From a virus, in IMG/VR virus record IMGVR_UViG_3300045988_043100, positions 1 through 30,518 of that record: DNA of 30,518 bases. One strand, given 5' to 3'. Positions 1,954-26,156 of the stretch are shown in pieces. The first letter of the stretch is position 1. Each line of letters starts with the position of its first letter. Both the position numbers and the translations under genes were made by a program. Under the pieces are notes generated by a model. It saw only the letters and a list, made by a program, of their open reading frames with translations, did no database searches and had not been told where the DNA came from.

Positions 1954-2223
1954 TTACTGCTCCTCTTTGATGCGGTCCAATGTGCGGATCATCTTCCGTT
2001 CTGCGATATCCTGGATAGTGTCCTCATGGTTGGTGAGGTAAGCGATCTGATCCAGCATATTGTAAGCATCGGCGATCTCTTCGTAGATTCCGCCTTCGCC
2101 GGAAAATGTCCTGGAGTGGATCGCTATATAGAGTTCCTCCAGTTCTTCCAGTGTTTTATGCAGCTGGGCGTCCAGTCCGTAGTGATCGGCCACGGCAGTG
2201 AGGTTGTCGTAGTGATTACTCAT
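1954..2223 (-). CDS. Small MazG-like nucleotide pyrophosphohydrolase-family protein (tentative). The start has been trimmed to the ATG at 2223 (MSNHYDNL...).
   Basis: The motif LEELEELYIAI...EEIADAYNMLDQIA resembles the EExxE...E..D metal-binding helices of the MazG/HisE superfamily. AAGGAG lies upstream of the ATG at 2223. The gene is embedded in the recombination/replication module. Confidence 0.4.
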   Translation of the reverse strand: MSNHYDNLTAVADHYGLDAQLHKTLEELEELYIAIHSRTFSGEGGIYEEIADAYNMLDQIAYLTNHEDTIQDIAERKMIRTLDRIKEEQ

Positions 2224-3025
2224 GGCGCTGCTCCTTATCGTCAAAAATCACTTCGCCGCTGTTCTCGTCCACGGTGTACTCGGCATCGACAGTTTCATTG
2301 GGCACCGCAAACATATCAGCGTCGATCTCGGTTTTGATGCTTTCGTCGGCACTCAGCTGCCGGGTGAAGTCGCTCTTCAAAGGAGCGTATTTCAGAGCCT
2401 TTTTCAGCACAGTCTTTTTTGCCATTTCTTCGAAATTAGTCTGCCAGGGACCGTTGTTGAACGACTTGCTGTACCGCTTTGCGTGGGCTCTTGCGTCCTC
2501 CACGCTCATTACCTCAAAACCAAAACCGCCGTCTTTGGTTTTGAAGATAGCGTAAAACCATACCGGCTCGCCCCGGTCTGCCTTTGCTGGGATATGCTTG
2601 AGGGAGGGCTCCAGGCCGAAGGAAAAATCAAAGGTGTCATTTGCGTAAACGGTATGGGCCTGGATTGTGGAAACCTGGCCGCTGCGGTACGCAAGATCAA
2701 TCAGGCCCTTGTATCCCAGCTGAAACTGGCATTCCAGGATGCCATGATTTTTGAAGGGGATCAGATAAGCCTGACCCAGCGGGGTGTTGGGCTCCATGCC
2801 AAGCTGAGCCGCCGTCATCATGGCGCCCAAGAAAGACTGGGGCGTGGTTTCTGCCAGCTTGGGATTGGCGGAAAGGGCAGAAAGGACGATCCGGGTAAAC
2901 CGCTCCGGCGTCAGCACCGAAGGAAGTGCCTTGGCAATCTCACCTTTCATCCGCTCGATGTACTGCTGCATGGTCTTGCGCTCCGGGGCCAGGTTGGCCG
3001 CCGCCTTCTGAATTGCTCCTACCAT
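2216..3025 (-). CDS. recT: RecT-family single-strand annealing recombinase.
   Basis: Characteristic RecT sequence: ...LIPFKNHGILECQFQLGYKGLIDLAYRSGQV..., AIFKTKDGG...EVMSVEDARAHAKRYS. AGGAGG RBS present. Immediately downstream of the YqaJ-type exonuclease, the classic exo-recT pair. Confidence 0.85.
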   Translation of the reverse strand: MVGAIQKAAANLAPERKTMQQYIERMKGEIAKALPSVLTPERFTRIVLSALSANPKLAETTPQSFLGAMMTAAQLGMEPNTPLGQAYLIPFKNHGILECQFQLGYKGLIDLAYRSGQVSTIQAHTVYANDTFDFSFGLEPSLKHIPAKADRGEPVWFYAIFKTKDGGFGFEVMSVEDARAHAKRYSKSFNNGPWQTNFEEMAKKTVLKKALKYAPLKSDFTRQLSADESIKTEIDADMFAVPNETVDAEYTVDENSGEVIFDDKEQRHE

Positions 3026-3027
3026 TG

Positions 3028-3966
3028 TTATTTCCTCCTGATTTCAAATTTTCTAAATTGTGATGTTTTGAAGTAGGGTTCCAAATCCATGTCCGGGTGA
3101 TCTTCGGAAAACTGGCCGGCATCAAAAGTGCGTTTGCTCTGCATGGGCCATCGGATTTTTCTTTCTCCGCAAATCCCGGTTTCGGCAACGCCAAGATCGG
3201 CCATGAAAATCTGCTTGATCTCTTCCAGCCGAAGATCAATGGCGTTTTTCTGCTCTCGCAGATCATCCCACTCGGCAAGCAGCGGCTCCCGGCCAAGCAA
3301 CTCAACGGTTGCTCCGACTGGATCGCTGTACTCCGCAGACAGGGCCTTTGTGGTGGGCTCTCTGCCGTCAACTGCCGGGGGAGTGTTGTTTTCCACCTTG
3401 GACCAAAAGCCTTGCTCTGCGACCATCAGGGCGTCTATTTCGGCCTGATCTCTCTCAACAGTGAAATGGTAAAACCCCTGGTTAAGCACCAGCACAGCAA
3501 GATACCAACGATCTGCACCGGTGACGGCCATGTAGTGGACGCACTGAGCATAGTATTGCTCAGGGTACTCGCCGTTTTTAAACTTCTTCAGCTGCATGAT
3601 GGAAGTGGTCTTGCACTCAAGTCCGGCGTTTTCGCCGACCACATCCCGGTCGATATTGGCGTGAGCCCACGGATACTTGGCATTTTTCAAAATGGCGCTG
3701 AGACGCCGCACCTTTTTCCCTGTGGCCTCCTGCCAACGATCCGCAACATACTTCTCCAGGTCTCTTCCTTGCCGCATGGCTTCATTATCTTCCTTCGGGG
3801 CGGTCTTGCCCGTCTTTTCGCACCAGAGAGAGTAGGGAGTAACCCAGGGGCTCATGCCGACGATTGCGGCGGCGTCGCTGCCGCCGATGCTCTTGCTCCG
3901 TTCCAGCAGCCACTGACTGTGGCTCATGTTGCTGGTGGAGATTCTTTCAACAGTCTTCGATATCAT
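3028..3966 (-). CDS. YqaJ-like viral recombinase-domain exonuclease (lambda Exo-like, PD-(D/E)XK). The start has been trimmed to the ATG at 3966.
   Basis: Motif SKSIGGSDAAAIVGMSPWVTPYSLWCEKTG is typical of the YqaJ/lambda exonuclease family. GGAGG lies 9 nt upstream of the ATG at 3966. Partner of the recT gene. Confidence 0.8.
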   Translation of the reverse strand: MISKTVERISTSNMSHSQWLLERSKSIGGSDAAAIVGMSPWVTPYSLWCEKTGKTAPKEDNEAMRQGRDLEKYVADRWQEATGKKVRRLSAILKNAKYPWAHANIDRDVVGENAGLECKTTSIMQLKKFKNGEYPEQYYAQCVHYMAVTGADRWYLAVLVLNQGFYHFTVERDQAEIDALMVAEQGFWSKVENNTPPAVDGREPTTKALSAEYSDPVGATVELLGREPLLAEWDDLREQKNAIDLRLEEIKQIFMADLGVAETGICGERKIRWPMQSKRTFDAGQFSEDHPDMDLEPYFKTSQFRKFEIRRK

Positions 3967-4147
3967 CCTGGATAACCTCCAACACATCCTTTTTTCGAAT
4001 GCACTGATCGCAGCCGACCACATCGCCGGTGGATGCGACCAAATACAAGTCCTCGCATACCCGGCCACACACGGGGCACTGGATCACCGGTTCGGGCCGA
4101 TTGGGGCAGCCGGGGGCGCAGGGGGATTGCAAGCAGATATCACACAT
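3947..4147 (-). CDS. Small Cys-rich protein (multiple CxxC pairs; putative zinc ribbon).
   Basis: The 66-aa ORF contains CDIC, CAPGC, CPVCG and CDQC. Codon usage is consistent with its neighbours. Translationally coupled to adjacent genes. Confidence 0.5.
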   Translation of the reverse strand: MCDICLQSPCAPGCPNRPEPVIQCPVCGRVCEDLYLVASTGDVVGCDQCIRKKDVLEVIQDDIEDC

Positions 4148-4331
4148 GATGCTCGCCCTCCTTTTTTACCGTGTCCCAGCAGATGCGATTGATTTCGCTG
4201 TCGGCCAGTATGCCGGCTGTCAGCGGGACGGCGCAGTCCTGGCCGAATTCGCACCACCAAGCGCATTTATCTTCAGCGCATGTCTTTCCGGTCATGGGGC
4301 AAATCTTACCCTTTGCGCTTTCCATATTCAT
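4140..4331 (-). CDS. Small Cys-rich hypothetical protein.
   Basis: The 63-aa ORF carries 8 Cys in a tight operon arrangement. Confidence 0.45.
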   Translation of the reverse strand: MNMESAKGKICPMTGKTCAEDKCAWWCEFGQDCAVPLTAGILADSEINRICWDTVKKEGEHHV

Positions 4332-4488
4332 CCTCCTTGTCCAATTCCTTACAAAGCAGCCGGATCGCCCCGGCCAGGACGGCCATATAGGGCAGGGACA
4401 GCCAGCTCAGCTGCTCGATCTCACGACAGGCCATCAGACCCAAAAAGAACAGGGCCGAAACCCAGGCTGTGTACTTTAAAGCCTTCAT
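4306..4488 (-). CDS. Small membrane protein (one or two predicted transmembrane helices).
   Basis: Hydrophobic segments VSALFFLGLMA and MAVLAGAIRLL. Overlaps its neighbours in operon fashion. Confidence 0.4.
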   Translation of the reverse strand: MKALKYTAWVSALFFLGLMACREIEQLSWLSLPYMAVLAGAIRLLCKELDKEDEYGKRKG

Positions 4489-4694
4489 TCCTGCACGCCC
4501 CCTTCCATCCAGCGGACAAAAGCCCGGCGGGGGATTCTGGTGCGGGTGCCCTGCACGCTCACGGGGAAGCCCAGGGCATCGGGGTTTTCCCGGGCCTGGA
4601 TGCGGATACTCTGCGGGTCGCAGCCGATCACTTGGGCCACGACAGCCGGAGAAATGAACTCCTTATCCATGGCCTTGATATCATTAAGCGTCAT
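4485..4694 (-). CDS. Excisionase/MerR-type (HTH_17-like) DNA-binding protein.
   Basis: Motif AVVAQVIGCDPQSIRIQARENPDALGFPV...RIPRRAFVRWMEG matches Xis/AlpA-like HTH domains. Confidence 0.55.
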   Translation of the reverse strand: MTLNDIKAMDKEFISPAVVAQVIGCDPQSIRIQARENPDALGFPVSVQGTRTRIPRRAFVRWMEGGVQE

Positions 4695-4782
4695 GCTTTT
4701 CCCTCCATTCCTTCAAAATTCCTTCATATTCCGGCCACCGGTTGGGCCAGATGGGCCTACGAATAGGCCATGTGCTGAACAC

Positions 4783-5007
4783 CTATCCGCAGATGATCAG
4801 AAAGGCAATGAAGCCAAACATCAGAGCCGAAAAGGCAAACACGGCCAGGCCAGCCATGAACATCTGGATCATCTCCATCTTCTGACGGGCGGTCAGGCGA
4901 TTGCTGTCGCAGCGGGAGACGCCAGCGGCGTCCATGACCTTGTCCACATCCCTTGCGCTCTGGCGGATGTCGTGGACGACCTGGTTAAATTTGCGATTAT
5001 CTTTCAT
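4783..5007 (-). CDS. Small protein with a C-terminal transmembrane helix.
   Basis: AAGGAGGA lies 7 nt upstream. C-terminal hydrophobic stretch AGLAVFAFSALMFGFIAFLII. Confidence 0.5.
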   Translation of the reverse strand: MKDNRKFNQVVHDIRQSARDVDKVMDAAGVSRCDSNRLTARQKMEMIQMFMAGLAVFAFSALMFGFIAFLIICG

Positions 5008-5093
5008 AAAAAATCCTCCTTGCCTTGTGGCCGGCAGGAGGATGTGGTATAATTCTCCCGCGGGCCTGTTGGATGCTTCAATAGGTTCCGCTG

Positions 5094-5139
5094 CCCTTGC
5101 TGGTGGTGGTGCACCGGCAGGGGCTTTTATTTTGTTTCC
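5094..5139 (+). terminator. GC-rich 12-bp stem hairpin (perfect on the plus strand with two G-U pairs) followed by a T-rich tract. It lies just downstream (minus sense) of the cro-like gene stop. It is a plus-strand or bidirectional terminator candidate.
   Basis: Arms cccttgctggtg and caccggcagggg with loop gtggtg, then cttttattttgtttcc. Confidence 0.4.
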
Positions 5140-5318
5140 TTCAGCAGATTGTCGATGGTAACGCCGAAGAAGTCGGCGACCAGCTTGATGTTGTTGACAC
5201 TGGGGGAGACCCTATCCCATTTGTAGATGGTTCCGAAACCAAGGCCGACTTCTTTTTCAAGAGCGGTAATATTGGTTTTTCTCTCCCGGCAAAGAGCCTT
5301 GATGTTATCGAGAATCAA
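5127..5318 (-). CDS. Cro-like HTH XRE-family transcriptional regulator.
   Basis: The HTH_3 signature ALCRERKTNITALEKEVGLGFGTIYKWD and the C-terminal FFGVTIDNLL are typical. It is divergent from the CI-like repressor. Confidence 0.75.
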   Translation of the reverse strand: MILDNIKALCRERKTNITALEKEVGLGFGTIYKWDRVSPSVNNIKLVADFFGVTIDNLLKETK

Positions 5319-5344
5319 AGTATCACCTCTTCTGTTAAGTAAAG

Positions 5345-5485
5345 CTATTTCAGCAATTCGGCCAAAGCCTGCGCAACCCCCGGGAGAACCGATACTTCTT
5401 CCTCGGGTGCGTTAGGCTTTGTAGCCCTCTCCACAAAAGAGACAAGAGCTTCTTCCAGCCTGGCCCGAACAGTTTTTTCATCCAT
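5345..5485 (-). CDS. Unannotated 46-aa ORF (MDEKTVRARLEEALVSFVERATKPNAPEEEVSVLPGVAQALAELLK). It is the first gene of the leftward early operon.
   Basis: Not in the ORF track because it is under 60 aa. TAAGGAGGAA lies 6 nt upstream of the ATG at 5485. Immediately downstream of the leftward consensus promoter. Confidence 0.4.
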   Translation of the reverse strand: MDEKTVRARLEEALVSFVERATKPNAPEEEVSVLPGVAQALAELLK

Positions 5486-5603
5486 TCCTATTCCTCCTTA
5501 TTTCTTGACGGGAATCGGTATATGCTAATATCGTGTTGGAGGCACAACTGCATATGTTCCGATAAGGCCCGCATTTTATGGGGGCTTGGTTTTTCGTCGC
5601 CCC

Positions 5604-5641
5604 ACACCCTTATTATATTTGAGTATATTCAAGTTGTCAAC
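5604..5641 (-). promoter_or_regulatory. Leftward early promoter with perfect consensus -35 TTGACA (rc of 5635-5640) and -10 TATAAT (rc of 5612-5617), 17-nt spacer. The spacer contains a 12-bp quasi-palindrome TGAGTATATTCA (operator candidate).
   Basis: The minus strand reads gTTGACAacttgaatatactcaaaTATAATaag. The intergenic region 5486-5684 separates the divergent cro-like and CI-like genes. A rightward TTGACG ... TAATAT element is also present around 5504-5531. Confidence 0.6.
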
Positions 5642-5684
5642 AGAGTGTTGGGACATTTTCAAATTTTGTTAAGGGAGGGATTTT

Positions 5685-5999
5685 ATGCCCATTGTTTCTG
5701 TTTTGGAAAGGCTTTGCAAAGAAAACGGAACTACAATCACTGCGTTAGAAAGAAAATGCGGCTTCAGCCTTGGTTCAATAAGAAAATGGGATGCCCATGC
5801 ACCAACAATTCCGAAATTGGAAGCGGTTGCGAAAGAACTTGGTACAACGGTTTCCTATATAATTGGTGAAAAAAATCCCGCCTCCGGAAATGGAGACGGG
5901 ATCAGCGAGCATGATGTCAGGCTTCTTGAGTGGTTCCACTCTCTGCCCGAAGAAAAGCGGCGAGCAATCCTAGAGATTGCAGGCGGGCCAAAAGAATAG
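5685..5999 (+). CDS. CI-like HTH XRE-family repressor.
   Basis: HTH_3 motif LERLCKENGTTITALERKCGFSLGSIRKWD. AAGGGAGGG RBS present. Divergent from cro and located upstream of the integrase. Confidence 0.75.
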   Translation: MPIVSVLERLCKENGTTITALERKCGFSLGSIRKWDAHAPTIPKLEAVAKELGTTVSYIIGEKNPASGNGDGISEHDVRLLEWFHSLPEEKRRAILEIAGGPKE

Positions 6000-6269
6000 G
6001 CCGCAGCTCGTCAGATTCGACGATTGATAAAAAAATCTTGTCTTCTTCCACATTCCTCACCTCTTTTTCCTTTATATTACACCTTGCAAAATGTCGAATA
6101 AAATCGAAATATGTGGGAAAAGGAAAATCTTTCTTGCATTTCAAATTATAGAACATTTGTTCTGTTTGTTCAATGCGCAATAGTCTACAAAAATAATATT
6201 TGATTTTTTAGGTTCAAAATTTTCGGTAGTCCGTACAATGGGACTGTTGCAAAAGGATGGTGAAATTAG

Positions 6270-6938
6270 GTGAGATTCTTTGAATTTTTCAAAAAGAATA
6301 TTGGAAACAAAGCAAGATGCGAAAAGCAAATAGAAAATCCTATACAAGAAAAAGAATCTGCTGTGATATCTATCACGAAGGACGATATGATCCCGTTCAA
6401 CATGCTTCCGTTTCATTTTAATGGGCCATATACAGATGTAAGAAATGAAAAAGGGAAGCCATGTATGTACATGGATTTGGATAAAATGAATCAGGCTGTG
6501 GCTACAAAAGAGCTAGAAAATATCAATTTGTATATTAGGGAAAGCGCTCACTATTATGATTCAATACCTGATGATCTGGAAATACCGATAAAATCTATTA
6601 TGTATAAAAAGTATTCGGAAAGCTACGGCTATAGCAAGCTAAAGTGCACTCCAAAAACAAAGACGGGAAAGCAGTCAAAAATTCCGCTTGAATTTGTGTT
6701 TATGACAAAACTTTTTCCACCGGATTATAAAGAAACAAAAGATGGATTTGAGCAAGTGCACCACGATACAACGACGGGTGAGTTATACTACGGTCATGAT
6801 GGTTCGGTTTTAAAAGGGAAAGTAAATTTTTGGAGACAAGGAAAAGGATATTTTTATGAGCTAAATACAGTTGGAAGAACGCTTTTAATTACAAAAATTA
6901 ACGCAACTTCCAGCGGAATTGTGTATGAATTTAAATAA
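6270..6938 (+). CDS. Hypothetical 222-aa protein encoded in markedly AT-rich DNA (moron/accessory gene). GTG start at 6270; an alternative start is at M40.
   Basis: Long ORF in an AT-rich island (6000-7200) between the repressor and integrase. No recognisable domain. Confidence 0.5.
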   Translation: MRFFEFFKKNIGNKARCEKQIENPIQEKESAVISITKDDMIPFNMLPFHFNGPYTDVRNEKGKPCMYMDLDKMNQAVATKELENINLYIRESAHYYDSIPDDLEIPIKSIMYKKYSESYGYSKLKCTPKTKTGKQSKIPLEFVFMTKLFPPDYKETKDGFEQVHHDTTTGELYYGHDGSVLKGKVNFWRQGKGYFYELNTVGRTLLITKINATSSGIVYEFK

Positions 6939-6951
6939 GGAGAGGTTAAAA

Positions 6952-7200
6952 ATGGTGTGTCCAAAGTGCGGGAGCGAAAACATTAAAATCGAAATGATGC
7001 AGACTTCGGCCAAAACATCAAAAGCCGGGAATGGTGTCTTGGGCCATGTGAACAATGCGGCTAGGGGAATGACCGCACTGTGTACCTTTGGAATGTCCAA
7101 TTTGGTTTGGAAAAAGGCAGAAGGCAGCGAAAAGACAAAATACAAAAACGAAAAAGTTTGCGTCTGCCAGAACTGCGGAAACTCTTGGCCGATCAAGTAA
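6952..7200 (+). CDS. Small zinc-ribbon protein with CPKCG and CQNCG at either end of a hydrophobic core. The start has been trimmed to the ATG at 6952 (MVCPKCGSENIK...).
   Basis: TAAGGAGAGG lies 6 nt upstream of the ATG at 6952. Its 3' end is followed by a strong terminator. It begins 14 nt after the stop of the previous gene. Confidence 0.55.
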   Translation: MVCPKCGSENIKIEMMQTSAKTSKAGNGVLGHVNNAARGMTALCTFGMSNLVWKKAEGSEKTKYKNEKVCVCQNCGNSWPIK

Positions 7201-7205
7201 AATCA

Positions 7206-7233
7206 ACCCGCCGGGACATCCTGGCGGGTTTTT
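7206..7233 (+). terminator. Rho-independent terminator ending the accessory cassette: GC stem cccgccggg/ctggcggg followed by TTTTT.
   Basis: cccgccgggacatcctggcgggttttt lies directly after the stop at 7198-7200. Confidence 0.7.
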
Positions 7234-7250
7234 CAAAAGGAGGATGCGGG

Positions 7251-8351
7251 ATGAAGTGCCGAAAGTGCCATGCAGAAATCCCGGACGAAAGCAAATACTG
7301 TCTCCGCTGCGGGGCCAAGCAGGAGATCAAGCGCAGCACCAGGACCCGGGGAAACGGCCAGGGAAGCGCCATCAAACGGGGAAGCACATGGACGGCCATC
7401 TGGACGGAATCAATGTATGTTGACGAAGAGGGAGGGTTTCACCAGAAGCGCCGGTGGAAAGGCGGATTCAAAACCAAGCGGGATGCCCTGGCTTACGCTG
7501 CCGGCCCGAAGGTGGAAGAAAAGCAGTATCCCTCTTTGAAAAGCTACTGGAAGAGCTGGGAGGATTCAGACTATCAGGACCTTTCGAAGTCCAAGCAAAC
7601 GGCCTTCCGCATTGCCTGGGCAAAGATGGAGGCCATTGCAGACAAAGACATGATGAGCCTGACCATTCAAAACCTACAAAACCTTGTGGATGAAAAAGCC
7701 CCCACATATTACCCGGCCAAGGACATGAAGACCCTTCTATCCCATTTATACAAGCGTGCTGTGGCCGAAGGAAACGCCCGAACTAACCTGGCGGAGTTTA
7801 TCCGGCTGCCGCCGCTGGAAGAAAAGGAAATGCAGCCGTTTGCAGAAGTGGAGCTTAAAAAGCTGTGGGATGCTTACGGCGCCGGGGATGAGTTTGTGGG
7901 GTACATCCTCCTGATGGTGTACTCAGGCATGATGCCCGGTGAGCTGCTTCAGATGCGGGGCAATATGGTGGATTGGGAAAAGGGGGAAATCGTTGGGTGC
8001 GGCCTGAAAACGAAAAAGCGCAAAGTCACCCCCATTGTTTTCCCGGACATGATCGCACCGGTGATCCGGGACACGATCGACCGGAGGGGAAACGAAGAAG
8101 AGTTGATCGTGCCAATCAGACGGGATAAATTCTATGACGAATACCACGCCGCTTTGCAGCGGGCCGGAGTGCGTGATTTGCCGCCATACTCCTGCCGCCA
8201 TACAACGGCAACGGCGCTGGCCCTGGACAACATAGCGCCCAGCGTGATCCAGGAAGTCATGCGCCACACCAAGTTCTCGACCACACAACGGTACATCCAC
8301 CCGGACAGCTCGTCCGCCAGGGATGCGGTCAACAGCCTAAAAAAGGCTTGA
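7251..8351 (+). CDS. int: Tyrosine site-specific integrase with an N-terminal zinc ribbon (CRKC...CLRCG) and an AP2-like arm-type DNA-binding domain. The start has been trimmed to the ATG at 7251 (MKCRKCH...).
   Basis: The C-terminal catalytic region SCRHTTATALALDN...VMRHTKFSTTQRYIH supplies the R...HxxR...Y signature of phage integrases. The N-terminal GNGQGSAIKRGSTWTAIW...FHQKRRWKGGFKTKRDA resembles AP2-type arm-binding domains. AAAGGAGG RBS present. Confidence 0.85.
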   Translation: MKCRKCHAEIPDESKYCLRCGAKQEIKRSTRTRGNGQGSAIKRGSTWTAIWTESMYVDEEGGFHQKRRWKGGFKTKRDALAYAAGPKVEEKQYPSLKSYWKSWEDSDYQDLSKSKQTAFRIAWAKMEAIADKDMMSLTIQNLQNLVDEKAPTYYPAKDMKTLLSHLYKRAVAEGNARTNLAEFIRLPPLEEKEMQPFAEVELKKLWDAYGAGDEFVGYILLMVYSGMMPGELLQMRGNMVDWEKGEIVGCGLKTKKRKVTPIVFPDMIAPVIRDTIDRRGNEEELIVPIRRDKFYDEYHAALQRAGVRDLPPYSCRHTTATALALDNIAPSVIQEVMRHTKFSTTQRYIHPDSSSARDAVNSLKKA

Positions 8352-8586
8352 AAAAATACGAAAGAAATTTAGTTATAGTTAGCATTACAGTTAGCAAATG
8401 CGCCGGAAGCGTTGATTTTACAGGGCCTGTCCACCCCTGATAGATGTGGTAAACATTAGTACCTATCAGCGCAGCAAGCAGCACGCCCACCAGAATTTTA
8501 AGAAAAAAAGCGTGCCGTTTGAGGTCGGCATACATTTCAGACGCCAAAGGTTCGGTATTTTTCGGCTGTTCGTTTTTTCCACACAT
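8329..8586 (-). CDS. Possible small membrane protein (MCGKNEQ...FLKILVGVLLAALIGTNVY...). It converges on and overlaps the integrase 3' end.
   Basis: AAGGA lies 9 nt upstream of the ATG at 8586 and there is one hydrophobic helix. It overlaps the candidate attP, so it is uncertain. Confidence 0.3.
   Translation of the reverse strand: MCGKNEQPKNTEPLASEMYADLKRHAFFLKILVGVLLAALIGTNVYHIYQGWTGPVKSTLPAHLLTVMLTITKFLSYFFKPFLGC
8352..8470. other. Candidate attP region: three direct AGTTA(GCA) repeats (8371, 8377, 8389) and an imperfect inverted repeat ctgatagATGT..ACAT..ctatcag (8437-8469), immediately downstream of int.
   Basis: The repeats are seen in the sequence. Placement 3' of int is the usual attP location in temperate phages of Firmicutes. 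Confidence 0.35.
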
Positions 8587-8606
8587 AAAATCACATCCTT
8601 TGGGCA

Positions 8607-8957
8607 TCATTTTACCATGATGTCTGGCGTTGCGCAATCGATGATCTTGACATGGTTGTCGATGCGTTTCATCAACCGTTTGACGCTGCCGTTTCCGTCC
8701 CGCTTCTCATAAGCATCATACATGGTGGTGAGGTTGTCCATTTCGTCCACAGTGGCCCGTCCAGAGTTGAGCACATTCATTCCGGCTTCCCAGATCAGGC
8801 CGTGTAAAATGGCAACGATGGCATCGTCGATTTCGTCTTTCCACTGCTTTTCCTTTTTTTCCTTGGCTTTCATGGATTTCACCCAGGCAGCAATCAGTCC
8901 GACGAAAAAGACGATTTGCACCCACCAAATGCGGAGAAACTCCGCCGTTTCCCGCAT
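8607..8957 (-). CDS. Membrane-anchored hypothetical protein (N-terminal transmembrane helix plus soluble domain), located between the lysis cassette and int/att.
   Basis: N-terminal IWWVQIVFFVGLIAAWV. This position is often occupied by lysogenic-conversion or exclusion genes. Confidence 0.5.
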   Translation of the reverse strand: MRETAEFLRIWWVQIVFFVGLIAAWVKSMKAKEKKEKQWKDEIDDAIVAILHGLIWEAGMNVLNSGRATVDEMDNLTTMYDAYEKRDGNGSVKRLMKRIDNHVKIIDCATPDIMVK

Positions 8958-8961
8958 GGAA

Positions 8962-9216
8962 TCACTCCTTCGGCTTGGTGTAGTTCATGGCCTGAGCGCT
9001 GTCACTCATGCCGGATGTGGTGGGGTCGTTTACAACGCCCAGGATCACAAGCACAGCAAATACAGCATTGACCACGGCCAGCAGCTTGTTCCCCAGGTCT
9101 CCCATATCAAGGTTGATGCCAAACACCGCCGCCACCACCTGAACCAGCAGCAGGACGGCAGGGATCAGCGAAAGCCAGAAGGTTTTGTTTTTCAGTCTCA
9201 CAGTCCAGTTAATCAT
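8962..9216 (-). CDS. Holin, phage phiLC3 / phage_holin_1 family.
   Basis: The family-typical N-terminus MINWTVRLKNKTFWLSLIPAVLLLVQVVAAVFGI and two transmembrane segments. Located directly upstream of the amidase. Confidence 0.85.
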   Translation of the reverse strand: MINWTVRLKNKTFWLSLIPAVLLLVQVVAAVFGINLDMGDLGNKLLAVVNAVFAVLVILGVVNDPTTSGMSDSAQAMNYTKPKE

Positions 9217-9226
9217 TGTTTCCTCC

Positions 9227-9919
9227 TTAGTCCAGCATCCCGGCCCGGTCCATAAACACGATGGGCTGAAGATTGCAGCCGAGCACGGTGACAGAATTGT
9301 CCCCGTTCGCGCTGACGATGCCTTTTTTCACAGCTTTCTGCACGGATGCCCGCGCCCACTCCGGCATATCGTCATACCAGTGGTATGTTTTCCGTGCCCA
9401 TTCCGGATAATCCAACATGGTATCCACTCCTTCCAGTTCTTTTTTAAAGTCCTCCCACAGCTGGGGGTTTTCCACCATGGGGCGGGGGCAGTTTTTCCCG
9501 GTCACATCGTAGTGCCGCAGCACCCGGTCAATGGGAATGTCATACGCCGCCATCAGCTGCCGCACGACCGACAGGGCCGTGTCGATGGTCCCGGGGCGTA
9601 TGTTTCCCGATTTGTCCAGAAGGCACATTTCCACGCCGATGCTGTTCCCATTGCGGCAAAAGGGGTGCTTGTAGGTCTTGGCCCCGCAGTGATAGGCGGT
9701 GTCCATCTCCCGAACACTTTGCCAGACCTCTTTTTCGTCCACAAAGTAGTGGGCGGAAGTCTTGGTAGTGGCTCGGGCAAAATAGTCGGCGTTGTTTTTT
9801 GCGGTATCGCCTTTGTTGGCGGTGTAATGCACCACGATATACCGGATGGGGGCAGTGCGCCCCGCCCGGTAATTGCCGCTGCCGGCCTGCTTGAAGCCGG
9901 TGATTTTTACAGCGTCCAC
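9227..9919 (-). CDS. Endolysin: N-acetylmuramoyl-L-alanine amidase (Amidase_2/PGRP fold) with a C-terminal wall-binding region.
   Basis: Motifs IRYIVVHYTAN...AHYFVDE...AYHCG...NSIGVEMC...LRHYDVTGKNCP are typical of zinc amidase_2 endolysins. Confidence 0.85.
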   Translation of the reverse strand: MDAVKITGFKQAGSGNYRAGRTAPIRYIVVHYTANKGDTAKNNADYFARATTKTSAHYFVDEKEVWQSVREMDTAYHCGAKTYKHPFCRNGNSIGVEMCLLDKSGNIRPGTIDTALSVVRQLMAAYDIPIDRVLRHYDVTGKNCPRPMVENPQLWEDFKKELEGVDTMLDYPEWARKTYHWYDDMPEWARASVQKAVKKGIVSANGDNSVTVLGCNLQPIVFMDRAGMLD

Positions 9920-10361: not shown

Positions 10362-10544
10362 TCACAGCAGTTTCACCCCCAGCATGATAGACAAATAGTC
10401 AATATCGGCACGAAGTTGGGCGTCCTTCTGCTCCCTGGCCTGTTTCTCCACAGTTTCAGCAGTCGGCTTGTACTTCCTCACGCCGTTCTCCTCCACCTCA
10501 ACATAACCCGGTTTTGGCGGGAGAGTAGGATTTGTGATTGCCAT
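10362..10544 (-). CDS. Small hypothetical phage protein (60 aa; possibly XkdW-like).
   Basis: ORF directly downstream of the tail fibre. Confidence 0.45.
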   Translation of the reverse strand: MAITNPTLPPKPGYVEVEENGVRKYKPTAETVEKQAREQKDAQLRADIDYLSIMLGVKLL

Positions 10545-10545
10545 A

Positions 10546-11850
10546 TTATTTCCCCCTTATATAAGCATAAGCATTTTTGATACTTATTACTGGTGTACAA
10601 GGTCTAATCAACGAATCAGCCCAAACAATTTGGTTGCTCGAAATGCCAATAAGGTTGCTTCCGGTTTGAGTAATAATAGAGTTTAAAAGGCGGGGGTTTG
10701 TGGTGGCATTTCCGAATGTTTCAAAAGTTTCACTATCAATTATAAGACTTTGGTCTATTGCTGGACTACCCAGCATGAGCAAGTTCCCCAAAGCGTATAC
10801 CATTTTGGTGTTGATAGACCCTTTGTAGGCAACTGTATCTGTATCTATGTTAGCTTGTTTTATGTCAAGACACCGATACAGTTTTGTGCTATCAATTGAA
10901 AAATAGAAAGTATACCCAGACGATTTCACTATATTATACCCAGAAAATTTGATTGAGCTTTGTTGGAAAGTAGGAGTATCAGCTCCGGGATTTCCGCAAA
11001 TATATGAGCTGCTTGTTGCGCTTCGATTGTACGCAATAACCGCTCCATCTATTGCAACCAGTACATCAAGTGCACCATATGGATTAGAGCTTGTAACCTT
11101 ATCTTGGTGCAATGATGTAAAAATGTCTATGGTCGTTTCTCCATAGGTGGTGGTTAAAACAAACAGCTTTCCACCTGCCACCACAGATGATGTGTAGCTT
11201 CTTGAGAGTTGAGTTACGCCACTAACATCCTCCCATGGACCATCAAGACTACCAGAAACAAATATAGCGCCCCCGCCATTGACCAGAAAATACTCTCCAT
11301 TAAAAAACCCAACATCTCTTAAATTGAGAACATTGTCATGTGGAACACTTGCCCAAGGGCCAGAGGGGTTTTTGGCATAGTACAGGGAGTTATTTTTCAG
11401 CTTTGCGAAGATGTATCCATTTACATATTTAACAAAATCAACTGTGTCAGAAAATGTGTACTTGTTGTTCCACACATTCGCCTTTTTTGGAGCAACTTTT
11501 GGCAAATCCGGATACTTGTTTTCGTCAAAAAATTCACCATTGCACAAAAGCCAGCTGTCTCCAAGGTCGGTTCTGGTGGAAACCTTGATATCACCAACCG
11601 CAAACACCGACTGGAACAGGTCGTCAACCGTTCCTTCTGGGCCACGGTTGTAAACGGCCATGGTTTCGTCCTGCCCAAGATTTTCTTTGTTCAGTAAAGT
11701 AGGCTGCTGCTGCCATCCAGCAGCATTAAACAGAATGTCAAGAAGCTGGTTTCCAGCTTCCGCAGCCTGTTTAAACTCTTCGTATGTTGCCGGGAGCGTG
11801 GCTTTCATTTTTCGGCTTGTTCCGTCGCCTTTGATTATTCCATCCTTCAC
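10546..11850 (-). CDS. Tail fibre / receptor-binding protein. The N-terminal part is conserved and at phage-like GC; the C-terminal roughly 250 aa are encoded by AT-rich DNA.
   Basis: Last large gene of the tail module. The N-terminus KGDGTSRKMKATLPATYEEFKQAAEAGNQLLDILFNAAGW is typical of a fibre anchor domain. There is a compositional shift at about 11300. Confidence 0.6.
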   Translation of the reverse strand: MKDGIIKGDGTSRKMKATLPATYEEFKQAAEAGNQLLDILFNAAGWQQQPTLLNKENLGQDETMAVYNRGPEGTVDDLFQSVFAVGDIKVSTRTDLGDSWLLCNGEFFDENKYPDLPKVAPKKANVWNNKYTFSDTVDFVKYVNGYIFAKLKNNSLYYAKNPSGPWASVPHDNVLNLRDVGFFNGEYFLVNGGGAIFVSGSLDGPWEDVSGVTQLSRSYTSSVVAGGKLFVLTTTYGETTIDIFTSLHQDKVTSSNPYGALDVLVAIDGAVIAYNRSATSSSYICGNPGADTPTFQQSSIKFSGYNIVKSSGYTFYFSIDSTKLYRCLDIKQANIDTDTVAYKGSINTKMVYALGNLLMLGSPAIDQSLIIDSETFETFGNATTNPRLLNSIITQTGSNLIGISSNQIVWADSLIRPCTPVISIKNAYAYIRGK

Positions 11851-12252: not shown

Positions 12253-14412
12253 TTACCACTCCACTATAATGCACCCATCTTTGCCGGGTGTGCCGTCCGT
12301 GCCGGGGGTCGGGTTCGTTGCCGTGACAAAGTGCCAGATGCCATTCTCGCCTTTCTCCTGGTACTGGTAGCCGTCAGAGCCTTGCTTGCCGCCATCGCCG
12401 CCGCAGCCGTAGCCGGTTTTGTTTTTGCCCCCCGGGGAAGCGTATACAGCGCCGGTCTGAATGTCCATCATGCCGTTGGCGTACACCGTGCCGCTTGCGC
12501 TGGTCAGCTGCCCAAAGGTGGTAGGCTTTCCGGCTTCGCCCATACCGCCGTTATTTCCGATACTGCCGCCTTTGCCAGCTGCGCCGCCGGCGCCGCAGGA
12601 ATAGGCAAAGCCCTGCCCCGGGTTGATGTTGATTTCGGCGATAAGCACCTTACCGCCATCGCCGGGATTGCCGCCGGTGGTTTCTTCCACATCCCAGCCG
12701 GTGTCGTCGGTCATCACGCCGCCGCCGCCACCCTGACCGCCTGTGCCGCCAGAAATGAGGGTGACTTTGATTTTGGCAACGCCGTCCGGGGCGTTCCATG
12801 TGCCGCCGCCGGTGAGCAGAACACGACCAACGGTAATTGCATCGTTGGGAGACTGCACCGCCTCAGAGGACACATTCCGCATTACGCCTTGGTCGAGTTT
12901 GAGGTTTTGTTTAAACAGCCGGGCGGAAACCTGTGTTCCAAACTGGGTGTCAATGCTCATAATGTCCCCGGTTTCACTGGACGGATTTCCCCGGCTTTCT
13001 GCGGCGAACTTCTTGCCGCCGTATTCCAGCAGACAAGAAAGAACGGCTTTCCGGGCGTCCTCTTCGGTGTGGACGAAAGGATTGGAAACACTCAAAGACT
13101 GGTTGCTTTCGGTATTGGTGCCGGGGAATGTGACCTCCCCTTTGTCCAGGGTGAAGGTAATGTCGGAAACCGCTTCGTTTTCCGCCATCGTCATATGGGA
13201 CGGCATGGCGTCAACGGTGATTTCGTTTCCTTCGATGCGTTCAACTTTTCCCACTCGCAGCTTTCCGGTAGCCATGTCCTGCCGGGGCCATGTGTTGGTA
13301 GCCATACAAGCATAGCGCAGCAGATCGCCGCAGGTGGAGCCGGTGACGGCTTCTTTCGTGGCTTTGAGGGGAAGGGATGCCACATCCTCTTCCACGATGT
13401 AGCTTTGCCGGAAGTTCACGCCGATGGATGCCATGATCGCTTCCACCCAGCCGGTAAGTGTAGTGGGCAGGGAAGAAGGCACGACAAAGCGTCTGCTTGT
13501 GAGCATCCCGATGATGTCCACAAGGTTCCATTTTACCGTGAGGTCAGCCAGAGACCAGCCGCCCGACTGCTGGTGATATGTCCCGGCTGGGAGCCACTCA
13601 ATAGAGCCATCTTCCAATCTCATGCCCATTTCAAATGACACAGCCTGCCGCTCTTCAATGGATTTGAAAATGGAATTGGGGGCGTATGGGTCAAAGCGTT
13701 TGTCCTCGTTGTAAATCTCTACATCGCAGGAGGAATAGGGAAGGGAAAGTCCGGAGAAGGTGGATTCCGTGAGAATGTCGATGCTGCGGATCACATCGCC
13801 GTCCCATGTCTCCAGCAGACCAGGAAGCATACGGATGATTCTGGCGCGGCGATTGCCAATGCTCCACTTTTTCACCGTCAGGCGGATTTTTGTTGGATAG
13901 TTGGCGGTAAAGCCATCGAACACTACCCGGGATGCTGTGTTTCCGGTGAAGTCTTTGCCGGCAAGAACCATATCGCCGGACAGCACTTCCACGGTAAAGT
14001 CCTCTGGCACGCCGTTGTAAGCGTGGGCGGAGAATTGCAGAGAGACAGCCTGGACAATCTCCGTGTTGGAGATTGTTTCCTCAGCGTATGGAAAAGGTTC
14101 GGCAAACACGCCGTTGGCATCGCAGATGGTGTCGTTTTCCCACCCTCGCTGGCCGGTCAAATCGGAAGGGTCAATGGTTTCCCATGTTCCATCCAGCACC
14201 CACCGCCCATGCTCAAGGGTGACGGCCTTCTGATTGGTTTCGTCTGTGCCACGGTCGGGAAGTTGGGCTTTCTTACTTTGCGCGCTCTCGTCGCTGACGG
14301 TGACGGCATCCACAACCATGTCAGGGTCGAAAAGGTCAAACACCGCCCGGGCGTACTGCCGGCGAGACCGTCCGACAACCGCCTGGGAGTATGCGGCGCT
14401 GTGTTTAATCAT
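12253..14412 (-). CDS. Phage minor structural / tail-associated (Tal-like, prophage endopeptidase tail family) protein with a Gly-rich collagen-like C-terminus.
   Basis: 719 aa, directly after a putative Dit. C-terminal GGTGGQGGGGG...GGNPGDGG...GAGGAAGKGG...GTDGTPGKDG. Confidence 0.6.
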   Translation of the reverse strand: MIKHSAAYSQAVVGRSRRQYARAVFDLFDPDMVVDAVTVSDESAQSKKAQLPDRGTDETNQKAVTLEHGRWVLDGTWETIDPSDLTGQRGWENDTICDANGVFAEPFPYAEETISNTEIVQAVSLQFSAHAYNGVPEDFTVEVLSGDMVLAGKDFTGNTASRVVFDGFTANYPTKIRLTVKKWSIGNRRARIIRMLPGLLETWDGDVIRSIDILTESTFSGLSLPYSSCDVEIYNEDKRFDPYAPNSIFKSIEERQAVSFEMGMRLEDGSIEWLPAGTYHQQSGGWSLADLTVKWNLVDIIGMLTSRRFVVPSSLPTTLTGWVEAIMASIGVNFRQSYIVEEDVASLPLKATKEAVTGSTCGDLLRYACMATNTWPRQDMATGKLRVGKVERIEGNEITVDAMPSHMTMAENEAVSDITFTLDKGEVTFPGTNTESNQSLSVSNPFVHTEEDARKAVLSCLLEYGGKKFAAESRGNPSSETGDIMSIDTQFGTQVSARLFKQNLKLDQGVMRNVSSEAVQSPNDAITVGRVLLTGGGTWNAPDGVAKIKVTLISGGTGGQGGGGGVMTDDTGWDVEETTGGNPGDGGKVLIAEININPGQGFAYSCGAGGAAGKGGSIGNNGGMGEAGKPTTFGQLTSASGTVYANGMMDIQTGAVYASPGGKNKTGYGCGGDGGKQGSDGYQYQEKGENGIWHFVTATNPTPGTDGTPGKDGCIIVEW

Positions 14413-14802: not shown

Positions 14803-16926
14803 CTAATTGTACTGAATCGCAGGGGATTGGGATTCAACCGAACGAATGTCCGGTACAAGCGCCCGAGCCATTTCTTTGCCGTTGACATTGAACACAATTT
14901 CCCGGCTTGCATTGCCGGATACGGCCATAGCCAGCATACCGGCGGCCTGGGTCAATGCGTTTTCGGAAGTAAACCGGGGCGTAGATGCCGCAACCGGAGA
15001 CATTGCGCTGTTTGCCGCCGCCACACTTGCCGCAGCGCCGGGGACAAACTCGGCCATTACAGCCCGGGCCGCAGCCACGGCGTCCTGTGCCACACTTACA
15101 GCGGCGTCAATCACGGTTTGCCGTCCGTCCTCGATGCCGGCAGCCATGCTCTCGTCGAAGAATTTTCCGCTTTCCTCTGCCCCGGATGTATCGGTTTCCA
15201 AATCGAATTCGGCTGCCATATCTCCGGTGTCGGCGGAATCCATCACGGCTTCGCTCAGGCTCTGCATGGCTTCTTCTGCGTTGGGGATAGCCGCTTCGAT
15301 ACCATCCGCAACGCCCAAGCCGATATTCTTGCCGATCTGGTCACGGAACAAGCGAGAAGGAGACTTGATGCCCAGGAACGACTTTGCACCGTCCACCACA
15401 TCACCAAAGAAGCCTTTGACCTTGCCAACGACCCAGTCTTTTGCAGCTTTAATGCCTTCCCAGATACCTTTTACGATCTCTTTGCCGATATCGATAATGC
15501 TTCCCATCAAAGCGCCGATGCCTTCGACGATGGCGGCGATGATCTGAGGAAGGGCAGCGATCAAATCGGGGATGGCTTTGATGATGCCACTGATAAGGCT
15601 CTTCAGTAGGTCCATACCGCCGGAAACAATAGCGGGAAGAGCGCTCGAAATATAATTGGTAATAGCCTTTATGACTTCTGGAAGCTTTGCAACCATGCTA
15701 GGGATGGCTCCAATAATGCCATCCACCAAACTTCCCAAAAACTCAAAACCTTTTTGGATAATACCCGGCATATTTTCAGCCAGGAAATTATAGAAATTGG
15801 CGATAATGTCCGGGATGCGAACAAGCATCTCGGGAATGTACTGCAAGATGCCGTCCGTGAGCATTGTGAGCAGTTCCGAACCAACAGCAACGATGGTCGG
15901 CCACATCTCCTGAAGCGCCGTGACGATGGATGTGATGATGGTCGGAAGCGCTTCCAGCAAAGAGGGTAATGCCGTTACTATCCCGTTTGCCAAAGCTGTG
16001 ATAATTTGCACGCCAGCATCCAGCAAAGGGGGTAGAATTTGCTCAATCAAAACAGGGAACGCCTCGGAAATGATAGGAGCCAATTCCACGATAAGGTTTC
16101 CGACGCCGGACAGAATCTCAATCAGCCGGGGTAGAATATTTTCGGCCGCGGTTGATACGGCTGAGACGAAGTTTTCGACAAGGGCGTCGAAATTTGCATT
16201 GCTGTCTCCCATGCCGGTCAGAAGGTTTTCCCATGCCGCTTTTGCAGCATTCAGAGACCCCTCGATAGTTGTGCTTGCTTCTTTTGCAGTGGTGCCCGTG
16301 ATCCCCATTTCGGTTTGGATCACATGGATGGCGTCAACCACATCAGCATAGCTGGATATATCGTAGTGTATGCCGGAGATAGCTTCTGCATCAGCCAAAA
16401 GCCGTTGCATTTCTTCTTTCGTGCCGCCATAACCAAGCTTGAGGTTGTCAAGCATGGTGTAATTCTGCTTAGCAAAACCCTGGTACGCGTACTGGATGGA
16501 TTCCATTGTGGTGCCCATCTTGTTTGCGTTATCTGACATGTCTGTGATTGCCAGATTTGCCTTTTCTGCGGCTGCCGCCGTGTCTCCATCAAGGCTTTGC
16601 AAAAGCGATGCAGAAAAGCTGGTTACGGTGTCCATGTACTGGTTCGCGGAAAGTCCTGCCGTTTTGTATGCATTTTCCGCATATCCCATTACAATGTCGG
16701 CGCTATCCTTGAAGAGCGTTTCTACACCGCCAGTAAGTTGCTCATAGTTTGCATAGGCGTCAAGGGATTGCTTTGCAAGAACACCGACAGCAGCACCTGC
16801 CGCACTAGCTCCGACGGCAATGCCCTTTAGTGCGCCTTTTGCTATACCACCCAGCTTGGACAATCCGGCTTTAAAACCGCTATTGTCCAGCTCTGTTCCG
16901 ATTTTTACAGTACCGTCGTTTGCCAT
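14803..16926 (-). CDS. Tail tape measure protein.
   Basis: 707 aa, Ala/Gly/Ile-rich, with repeated helical segments. It follows the two tail-chaperone genes. Confidence 0.85.
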   Translation of the reverse strand: MANDGTVKIGTELDNSGFKAGLSKLGGIAKGALKGIAVGASAAGAAVGVLAKQSLDAYANYEQLTGGVETLFKDSADIVMGYAENAYKTAGLSANQYMDTVTSFSASLLQSLDGDTAAAAEKANLAITDMSDNANKMGTTMESIQYAYQGFAKQNYTMLDNLKLGYGGTKEEMQRLLADAEAISGIHYDISSYADVVDAIHVIQTEMGITGTTAKEASTTIEGSLNAAKAAWENLLTGMGDSNANFDALVENFVSAVSTAAENILPRLIEILSGVGNLIVELAPIISEAFPVLIEQILPPLLDAGVQIITALANGIVTALPSLLEALPTIITSIVTALQEMWPTIVAVGSELLTMLTDGILQYIPEMLVRIPDIIANFYNFLAENMPGIIQKGFEFLGSLVDGIIGAIPSMVAKLPEVIKAITNYISSALPAIVSGGMDLLKSLISGIIKAIPDLIAALPQIIAAIVEGIGALMGSIIDIGKEIVKGIWEGIKAAKDWVVGKVKGFFGDVVDGAKSFLGIKSPSRLFRDQIGKNIGLGVADGIEAAIPNAEEAMQSLSEAVMDSADTGDMAAEFDLETDTSGAEESGKFFDESMAAGIEDGRQTVIDAAVSVAQDAVAAARAVMAEFVPGAAASVAAANSAMSPVAASTPRFTSENALTQAAGMLAMAVSGNASREIVFNVNGKEMARALVPDIRSVESQSPAIQYN

Positions 16927-24881: not shown

Positions 24882-26156
24882 TCATTCGTTTTCACCCTTT
24901 CCAGACCAGTCCAGCCAGTCAAATTCTCTGCGCACAATGGTATGGCACATATAGCGTATGTCGTCCATTGCATGGTCAAATTCTTTTATAACTCTATCTT
25001 CCGGTGCATCGGCGTCCCAGCTGTAAAGCCCGAACTCATCCATGGCGTTTTTGCAGCTCTTATGCACCAGCATCCTCCCGGCGTTCAGAAGGGAAGAGAC
25101 GGTGGCAATTCCGGGTATCACATCGTTGTTTGCATTCCAGGCATCGTACTTGTCATGCCGCCGGATTGTCTCCTTAAAGCTAGTTGCGCTTGGGTCAATG
25201 ACGATAGCTTCTATCGGTATATCACCGATGATTGCATCCAGAGCGGCATAATGCCCTTCATCGTCTTTCTTCGGCTTCTGTTGGCCGTATTGGTCGACAC
25301 TTTTGCTGTCATAGTAATACTCTCGCCAGCAATACGCCACGCCCTTGTATAGCGCCCACAGATGGGCGGAAAACGGATTGTTGATGCCGTAGTCACAAGA
25401 CACCCAAAACTCCGCACCCCGCATGGGTGTTCCATCGCCCCGAAGGAAAGGTGTATCGGCGAATGTGTGCTTTTCTTCGTCAAAATTCTGGTACACCAGA
25501 CCGTCAGCCATGACCCACTCGCCCAACACATAGCGCTGATAGAACACGCCGGAGAAGTCCTGCTTGTACCTTGCCAGGGTCTTTTCTGATAGTGACGGGT
25601 TGTCAGTCATGGAGAAGTGCAGATACAGGGCGTTATGTTTTTCCCTGCCCAATATCCACTCCTGGTAAAACCAGTGCTTCGGGCTGGCCGGGTTGCAGGA
25701 AAACCAAATCTTTGCCCCCTCGACAGAGCACCGCGTGAGTGCCTGCTGCACGAACGACTGCGGCATCAGCACCACCTCGTCCAGAAGCACACCGGCAAGC
25801 GTGCGGCCTTGGATCAGAGCGGCGCTGGCTTCATCTTTTCCACCGAACACTTCAAAGATGTTCACCGTGTTTCCTCGGCGCACTTCCATGATCTTCTCAG
25901 ACCGTCTCCACTTTATGGAGTACCGTTCCTGTGCCCACGCCATTTGAGTATAGGGGACAACAATGTTCTTCGTTGCGCTGTCCACGGTCTTGCCGCAGAT
26001 TCCAAACCGGCATCCGTTGAAATTCTCCATAGCCCAGCGGATGAAAGAAACGGTCATTATTGAGGTTTTCCCGCTGCGGACGGCTCCATCGCACACGATT
26101 GCATCGTATGCGGAGTATGGGAAGGCAAGGATTTTTTGCTGTTTTTCCGAAATCAA
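24882..26156 (-). CDS. terL: Terminase large subunit (PBSX family).
   Basis: Walker A VCDGAVRSGKT and a C-terminal nuclease region (DYG...D). Confidence 0.9.
   Translation of the reverse strand: MISEKQQKILAFPYSAYDAIVCDGAVRSGKTSIMTVSFIRWAMENFNGCRFGICGKTVDSATKNIVVPYTQMAWAQERYSIKWRRSEKIMEVRRGNTVNIFEVFGGKDEASAALIQGRTLAGVLLDEVVLMPQSFVQQALTRCSVEGAKIWFSCNPASPKHWFYQEWILGREKHNALYLHFSMTDNPSLSEKTLARYKQDFSGVFYQRYVLGEWVMADGLVYQNFDEEKHTFADTPFLRGDGTPMRGAEFWVSCDYGINNPFSAHLWALYKGVAYCWREYYYDSKSVDQYGQQKPKKDDEGHYAALDAIIGDIPIEAIVIDPSATSFKETIRRHDKYDAWNANNDVIPGIATVSSLLNAGRMLVHKSCKNAMDEFGLYSWDADAPEDRVIKEFDHAMDDIRYMCHTIVRREFDWLDWSGKGENE

Follow-up and report, generated by a model that had tools for sequence, protein, structure and literature searches.

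The viral sequence IMGVR_UViG_3300045988_043100 (IMG/VR; 30,518 nucleotides, the whole of which is called here the window) is a temperate siphovirus-like phage genome in a non-integrated arrangement, and the host group of this phage is gut Clostridia. Nearly all genes of the window are carried by the minus strand; the lysogeny module is the sole plus strand block and consists, in this order, of an XRE-type repressor candidate, two genes called here A and B, and a tyrosine integrase. The interval between repressor and integrase is a real and well-delimited accessory locus; loci of this kind are known, and the particular protein families encoded in it are new. Our preferred reading, to which we give about an even chance, is that A and B are two independent morons stacked in the repressor-integrase slot, each of which would act alone and most likely serve to exclude or abort superinfecting phages. 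The features of the locus are as follows (GC, guanine plus cytosine fraction; aa, amino acids; ORF, open reading frame):

5685..5999, plus strand: XRE-family repressor candidate, 104 aa (Pfam HTH_3, 6e-4; PHROG_8, 2e-8)
6000..6162, no strand: AT-rich intergenic segment (GC 0.344; about 97% identical, up to 6162, in L023 and L026, which lack A)
6163..6936, plus strand: indel segment of 774 bp, made of a 107-bp leader and gene A (blastn and alignment against L023, L026, L027 and L028)
6270..6938, plus strand: gene A, encoding a 222-aa, probably soluble protein of an unannotated family (ORF, homologues, alignments)
6937..6945, plus strand: ribosome-binding site of B, AAGGAGAGG, which is the right-hand indel junction (sequence reading, alignment)
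6952..7200, plus strand: gene B, encoding an 82-aa four-cysteine split zinc ribbon with a conserved helical insert of about 35 residues
7205..7233, plus strand: intrinsic terminator 3' of B (RNA fold -21.6 kcal/mol, z -3.5; inverted repeat I6)
7251..8351, plus strand: tyrosine integrase, 366 aa (Pfam Phage_integrase, 2e-17; PHROG_1, 1e-39)

The separate origin of the two genes is best seen when two classes of contigs, all encoding a B protein 99% identical to that of the window, are compared. In the first class (L019, L020, L021, L024, L025 and L036-39) A, B and the integrase are arranged as in the window. In the second (L023, L026, L027 and L028) segment 6163-6936 is absent, with both flanks 96-97% identical by blastn and alignment; the intergenic segment 6000-6162 is conserved in relatives with and without A. 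The left junction of the indel lies after ...ATAGAACATTTGTTC and the right one falls exactly at the ribosome-binding site of B, AAGGAGAG. In place of the 774 bp, the A-less phages carry either an unrelated 126-bp spacer (L023, L026 and L028) or 11 bp (L027), and the 126-bp spacer brings a TTGGCA-17-TATAAT site (11/12 consensus match) directly upstream of B. The alignment thus defines A as a single-gene presence/absence polymorphism, and B with its terminator as a separate resident unit; in this phage, the A-carrying segment takes the place of the promoter-bearing spacer of B. The initial annotation had seen in A and B a single two-gene cassette. This does not hold: between phages that are about 97% identical the indel takes only 6163-6936 and stops at the ribosome-binding site of B, B is kept in every examined relative of the lineage, and other examined phages have B without A. 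Nor do the two genes behave as a constant pair, since in the loci of the closest A homologues (53-56% identity) the next gene encodes a zinc-ribbon/TM2 protein or a multi-pass membrane protein, and not B. No direct or inverted repeats were found on the flanks of the A indel, which leaves a transposon-like insertion unsupported.

Gene A is not variable in this lineage only. Loci L078-L086, L112 and L116 (from IMG/VR), whose integrases are 98-100% identical to that of L001, lack an A-family gene in the 3 kb that precede the integrase; as L001-L006 do have one, the A homologue is a variable insertion in a second lineage too. Smaller differences were seen within the gene itself: in-frame indels occur in the N-terminal linker among near-identical phages (L036, L037 and L039, at about 2865-2880; proteins P0264 and P0268), one being a 12-nt deletion and another removing 5 aa together with part of a conserved MLPFHF motif. 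The truncated 157-aa copies of A called in L036, L037 and L039 proved to be gene-caller artefacts, the genes being intact with a GTG start and the in-frame 12-nt deletion, so that they give no evidence of A pseudogenisation. Start-site artefacts account for the public calls of A (157 and 183 aa) and of B (91 aa). Two observations support the GTG start retained here for A: L019 has an ATG there, and the N-terminus is conserved among the homologues.

Base composition also separates the two genes. Segment 6163-6936 (774 nt) has a GC of 0.342, the mean of the window being 0.519 (z = -3.6); segments of equal size with so low a value make up only 0.4%, and the GC minimum of the window falls there. 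The sharp drop that had been attributed to a two-gene block is found for 6000-6162 and for gene A (0.344 each) and does not extend to B, which at 0.458 is at the level of the repressor (0.463) and of the cro-like gene (0.458); the integrase is at 0.553. The A homologues are likewise AT-rich outliers in their own phages (0.345 versus 0.53-0.56). Several other points of the initial annotation stand. Both ORFs are present as described, A at 6270-6938 on the plus strand with a GTG start and B at 6952-7200 on the same strand, with CPKCG at residues 3-7 and CQNCG at residues 72-76. The terminator is real in the sense that RNA folding gives a G+C-rich hairpin of 11 bp (7205-7230) with a U tract behind it, up to 7233 (dG -21.6 kcal/mol, z = -3.5); it was not listed by a simple consensus terminator scan. 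The view of the repressor-integrase interval as a cargo hotspot is borne out by a control set of 61 loci, chosen for having integrases akin to those of Blautia phage Montmirail and of L001; the set displays 38 distinct upstream configurations; a B-like gene is found in 3 of the 38 and A in one.

Gene B belongs to a widespread family: clustering at 90% identity gives at least 144 clusters, which share 55-72% identity with the window protein, and single B sequences occur on more than 500-1000 contigs. Members were found in Roseburia hominis, R. lenta, Dorea, Qiania and other Lachnospiraceae, and in Oscillospiraceae; tblastn with B against cultured phages gave no match. Invariant positions are Cys3, Cys6 and a large part of the insert (G28, G31, N35, R38, G47, S49, L51, W53 and K55); at least 90% of the sequences also have Cys72 and Cys75. 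The gene is under purifying selection, with a nonsynonymous divergence (dN) of 0.21-0.28 and saturated synonymous sites. In 11 loci taken from two other B clusters, B is always directly downstream of the repressor, or of the repressor and an ImmA-type M78 peptidase, with a tyrosine or serine recombinase downstream of B; A is absent from all of them. In the lineage of the window B is fixed, and most related lysogeny modules are without a B-like gene. Remote homology (hhalign probability 96%, E about 1e-9) links B to small proteins of L031 and L040, in which the ribbon is split in the same way but the insert is truly hydrophobic or rich in Gly.

The AlphaFold2 (AF2) model of B (mean predicted local distance difference test score, pLDDT, 81) has a long beta-hairpin (11-25/59-72), presumably closed by the two CxxC knuckles, with the helical insert (28-44) at its tip. 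A fold search with this model found no significant match in the PDB; the top matches in BFVD, to phage ‘TFIIS-like’ proteins, were weak (E 7e-3, TM 0.4). All Pfam matches of B were to generic zinc ribbons, below cutoff. Two known ribbons were considered as relatives. The LITAF-like ribbon (PF10601) resembles B in having a CxxC, a beta-hairpin, an insert and a C-terminal CxxC. It was rejected: B has no PF10601 match at E<=1, hhalign against human LITAF gives a probability of 2.5%, and the insert is polar or amphipathic where a membrane segment of about 22 residues would be required. The ‘hydrophobic core’ ascribed earlier to B is not membrane-spanning, its maximal 19-residue Kyte-Doolittle mean being 0.59; a truly hydrophobic insert in a remote homologue scores 2.5. 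The remote homologue from L031 has a truly hydrophobic insert and also a sub-threshold PF10601 match. With the ribbon of TFIIS and RNA polymerase (RNAP) subunit M (PF01096), B shares the knuckle motifs CPxCG...QT...CxxCGxxW, but the acidic hairpin tip is replaced in B by the helical insert of about 35 residues and there is no PDB fold match. Identity with TFIIS was also set aside, as the score of 20.7 bits (cutoff 21.0) covers residues 2-18, i.e. the first knuckle only; for the same reason the IMG label of B, ‘RNAP subunit M/TFIIS’, is an over-annotation.

As anticipated in the initial annotation, the A protein has no recognisable domain: none was found in Pfam, PHROGs, PADLOC or NCBIfam. Its N-terminus is MRFFEFFKK and its domain, of about 190 residues, has as hallmark a loop C-T-P-x-T-x-T-G-K-x-S-K-x-P. 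A word-indexed homology search with A returned four clusters only (97% and 53-56% identity), and the same type of search with a 71-sequence profile added nothing; an exhaustive profile search extended the family to 137 representatives at 50% identity, of which 78 have E<1e-10. Genomic loci of the family were gathered by a degenerate DNA motif search. Among cultured phages, tblastn with A gave a sole match, protein WAK79202.1 of Blautia phage Montmirail (annotated as hypothetical), and blastn of the whole locus gave none. When 71 members were scanned, no Pfam family covered the A domain and NCBIfam gave nothing; the only matches lay in fused parts, namely a zinc ribbon, FtsK-gamma and PHROG 4611 ‘minor head protein’. 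The sequence profiles of the A and B families found nothing in the PDB with E<0.1. Gene A is under purifying selection, the ratio of nonsynonymous to synonymous divergence (dN/dS) being 0.13 against homologues of 55% identity and 0.23 against one of 96%.

Only two prolines and one glycine are invariant across the 71 diverse members, and for this reason we read A as a binding or structural module and not as an enzyme: it is probably a soluble, non-enzymatic binding domain. By Kyte-Doolittle analysis neither A nor B has a transmembrane (TM) segment. Among 136 relatives of A, 53 start with a MG[LI]FDF[LF]KK-like motif and about 18 have instead a true N-terminal TM helix; this alternation suggests membrane proximity, the A-family proteins possibly acting at the cytoplasmic face of the membrane. 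Relatives longer than 330 aa, with unannotated N-terminal domains, number 34. A C-terminal tail of about 60 aa (LPxxCPKSxxGY/FRRMKxxNxxNYQ) was noticed in 23 of the 136 members, e.g. P0140, P0142, P0149 and P0152; the window protein does not have this CPKS..GYRRMK tail. The PHROG 4611 matches, given by 13 of the 71 scanned members, are putatively due to it.

A same-strand integrase is found within 1.6 kb downstream of the A-family gene in nine of the 11 lineages with enough flanking sequence (the window, L001-6, L029, L031, L033, Montmirail, L040/44, L043 and L045; L032 and L042 are outside the pattern). In L032, a Lachnospiraceae metagenome-assembled genome, the A domain is fused to TerB_N (3715-5148), and the gene adjoins those for a Ltp-type lipoprotein and a Fic protein. 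A zinc-ribbon+TerB_N protein is encoded in L033 (133-1275, minus strand), divergently, beside the A-family gene; the association of TerB_N with the family is thus recurrent (L032, L033).

How A and B are transcribed can be approached from the signals around them. Between the repressor and A (5999-6270, plus strand) no terminator-like site and no significant hairpin or RNA structure was detected, so that co-transcription of A with the repressor is possible, and on these sequence grounds plausible. The only plus strand promoter-like site near A is a weak 9/12 match at 6076-6104. Downstream, 18 nt containing the ribosome-binding site AAAGGAGG separate the end of the U tract (7233) from the integrase start (7251). 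They hold no promoter-like site, and transcription of the integrase must therefore read through the terminator or begin inside B; such a layout may keep integrase expression low in lysogens.

The history that we favour for the locus runs as follows. B would be the older resident, a small split zinc ribbon found just downstream of the repressor (or of the repressor and ImmA) in many Lachnospiraceae and Oscillospiraceae prophages with nothing else in common, and forming, in the sister phages, what looks like a self-contained promoter-gene-terminator unit. A would be a later AT-rich single-gene insertion (6163-6936) that displaced the promoter-bearing spacer of B. With the loss of that spacer, a promoter further upstream, either that of the repressor or another, probably drives the transcription of A and B together, the transcript ending at the terminator after B. 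Both genes would most likely be expressed in the lysogen and to its benefit, their probable role being the exclusion or abortion of superinfecting phages, with A and B acting separately.

This role is proposed by analogy. Superinfection-exclusion genes occupy the repressor-integrase interval in Gram-positive phages, as do those of lactococcal Sie2009 and of Ltp from Streptococcus thermophilus phage TP-J34, and it is this precedent, together with the variable presence of A, that makes an exclusion or defence function, possibly near the membrane, the most likely one; exclusion, abortive infection or lysogenic conversion, the roles suggested from the outset for the locus, form a plausible and reasonable hypothesis. 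Like the Sie and Ltp genes, A and B lie in that slot and orientation and encode small, phage-variable proteins, and the A family offers membrane hints (the N-terminal motif or TM segment, and membrane-protein neighbours). Unlike them, A and B have no TM helix or lipobox, and neither has a Pfam or PHROG match to Ltp (PF07553) or Sie proteins. Prophage defence genes reportedly also lie in variable central or immunity regions, for instance in cluster N mycobacteriophages (as Dedrick and colleagues are said to have described in 2017) and in the case of BstA. The likeness there is in the variable cargo beside immunity and integration genes of near-identical prophages; hosts are different, the proteins unrelated, and no significant PADLOC match was obtained.

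The moron concept itself is said to go back to Hendrix and Juhala, with lambda bor and lom and the extra genes of HK97 and HK022 as examples. Here, gene A is present in some phages and absent from other, near-identical ones, and its composition is atypical (z -3.6). B is fixed in the lineage and absent from most related modules, and its GC is not atypical. There is a strong terminator after B and, in the A-less relatives, a promoter match for B (11/12), such sites being consensus matches only; the orientation, as in morons, fits expression from the prophage. No promoter was found for A, which is a difference.

Several observations weigh against two independent exclusion genes. Consensus scanning revealed no convincing promoter upstream of A in the window, and expression of A and B in the lysogen is assumed from their position and orientation. 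No significant PADLOC match was obtained: none of the 71 A-family members has one at E<=1e-3, B has none, and A alone gives against PADLOC-DB v2 a weak match to spbK only (E 0.0025, 15 bits). The AF2 prediction for A (from a five-sequence alignment) had a pLDDT of 32, so that the reading of A as a binding domain is drawn from conservation patterns only, and the amphipathicity of its own N-terminus is not significant (hydrophobic moment, muH, 0.66; reached by 7% of shuffled sequences). Finally, the gene that follows A encodes a split ribbon of the B superfamily in three lineages (the window, L031 and L040/44; hhalign 96%), and another zinc-ribbon+TM protein in two more (L001-6 and L045). These zinc-ribbon neighbours hint at a functional link between A and B that independence leaves unexplained.

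The hint can be developed into the view that an A-family protein and a split zinc-ribbon or membrane partner make up one two-component system, with the ribbon at or near the membrane and A as its cytoplasmic partner. In this phage A and B are only 13 nt apart, without a promoter-like site between them, and share a terminator; in L031 and L040/44 the remote homologues of B come directly after divergent A homologues (30-41% identity), other zinc-ribbon+TM proteins hold the position of B in L001-6 and L045, and some A-family members have a TM segment or a zinc ribbon of their own. We nevertheless judge this system unlikely, given that the near-identical A-less phages keep B with its own promoter match, that A is present in 0 of the 11 B-anchored loci from the two other clusters, and that A occurs without a B-like gene in Montmirail, L033 and L043. 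Moreover, B-like genes are not significantly enriched beside A (3/11 versus 3/38 in the control; Fisher p=0.12, or p=0.28 without the window), and a functional A+B pairing is neither supported nor established. The boldest version of the idea would make the A domain a new membrane-proximal prophage immunity family of gut Clostridia, working with interchangeable zinc-ribbon or membrane partners (B superfamily, TM2, LITAF-like) in a two-component system for superinfection exclusion or abortive infection not described before, of which the proteins fused to TerB_N or TM segments would be single-chain forms; we regard it as very doubtful. An addiction module is extremely improbable. Two small, adjacent and co-oriented genes, one of them very weakly like the MqsA-type CxxCG zinc-ribbon antitoxins (NCBIfam E 0.096), could in principle stabilise the prophage as a toxin-antitoxin pair, but that match spans the first zinc knuckle only, neither protein matches any toxin or antitoxin family, and A and B commonly occur singly, which is unexpected for such a pair. 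An obligate type II pair was rejected, as B is found without A and A without B.

In another alternative only A is accessory, and B is a part of the lysogeny switch, for instance as a co-factor or as a modulator of the stability of the repressor, of induction or of the expression of the integrase. Its constant place as the next gene after the repressor or ImmA, irrespective of which kind of repressor or recombinase is present, agrees with such a function, as do its fixation in this lineage, its unusually high conservation (55-72% identity across phages with unrelated neighbouring genes) and the terminator set 18 nt before the integrase start, by which the B transcription unit would gate read-through into the integrase. 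Yet 35 of the 38 control configurations do without a B-like gene, and so do L001-6 and Montmirail; in the sister phages B has its own promoter match and terminator, and the only domain detected in it is a generic zinc ribbon, with none for DNA binding or regulation. A switch component is, on balance, distinctly unlikely, and we retain two separate morons as the preferred reading of A and B.

Some features of the flanking lysogeny genes deserve mention. The repressor candidate is a helix-turn-helix (HTH) protein only, without S24 or ImmA partner. A mosaic breakpoint was found at 5869, inside its gene (5685-5999), and coincides with a hairpin at 5874-5903: L007, L019, L020 and L024 are about 97% identical to the window from 5869 on and have a different sequence upstream, which means that the HTH part of the repressor was swapped and its C-terminal 43 residues kept. 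Antisense to the 3' end of the repressor gene, the minus strand of 5874-6173 has the look of a gene-like unit, with a promoter-like TTGAAC-17-TATAAT (6173-6145), a ribosome-binding-site-like GAGGTGAGG and a GTG near 6044, from which an ORF of 44 codons runs to 5917, and a hairpin resembling a terminator (5903-5874). Its product may be a small protein, or an antisense RNA, that acts on the repressor. On the cro side, a sigma-70-like promoter matches at 12 of 12 positions (5640-5612, minus strand). The integrase has an N-terminal zinc ribbon (Zn_Ribbon_1, 7e-7; 7251-7330) ahead of its arm-binding and catalytic domains, and its relatives are alike in this. An Rfam scan of 5000-8700 found nothing meaningful. 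The other genes recognised in the window are:

5127..5318, minus strand: cro-like HTH gene, 63 aa, divergent from the repressor (Pfam HTH_3, 7.7e-5; PHROG 18248, 2e-15)
2216-3025, minus strand: RecT, early gene
3028-4068, minus strand: YqaJ, early gene
8962-9216, minus strand: holin
9227-9919, minus strand: amidase
12253-14412, minus strand: 719-aa ORF of the presumed structural-gene region, without significant Pfam domain
14803-16926, minus strand: 707-aa ORF of the presumed structural-gene region, without significant Pfam domain
24882-26156, minus strand: large terminase

There is also a second AT-rich trough at 10400-11600 (GC about 0.40-0.41), inside a 434-aa ORF (10546-11850, minus strand) that has no Pfam match and lies upstream of the lysis genes; this ORF may represent an exchanged module for receptor binding or for a tail fibre.

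The human gut is rich in temperate phages of Lachnospiraceae and Oscillospiraceae and, to our knowledge, the cargo that they express in lysogeny is almost entirely uncharacterised. This is also the status of A and B, as had been supposed: literature searches on LITAF in prophages, on superinfection exclusion with zinc ribbons and on Montmirail brought up nothing about what either protein does. The locus offers two candidates, namely a widespread and conserved 82-aa zinc ribbon, which occurs in isolates of Roseburia and Dorea and on contigs numbering hundreds to thousands, and a rarer A-domain family with varied fusions (TerB_N, TM segments, zinc ribbons). Since natural isogenic phages with and without A exist, a clean functional test is possible, and Blautia phage Montmirail in B. 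coccoides provides a cultured entry point. If A or B is indeed an exclusion or defence factor, it would bring a new protein family into the immunity repertoire of gut phages.

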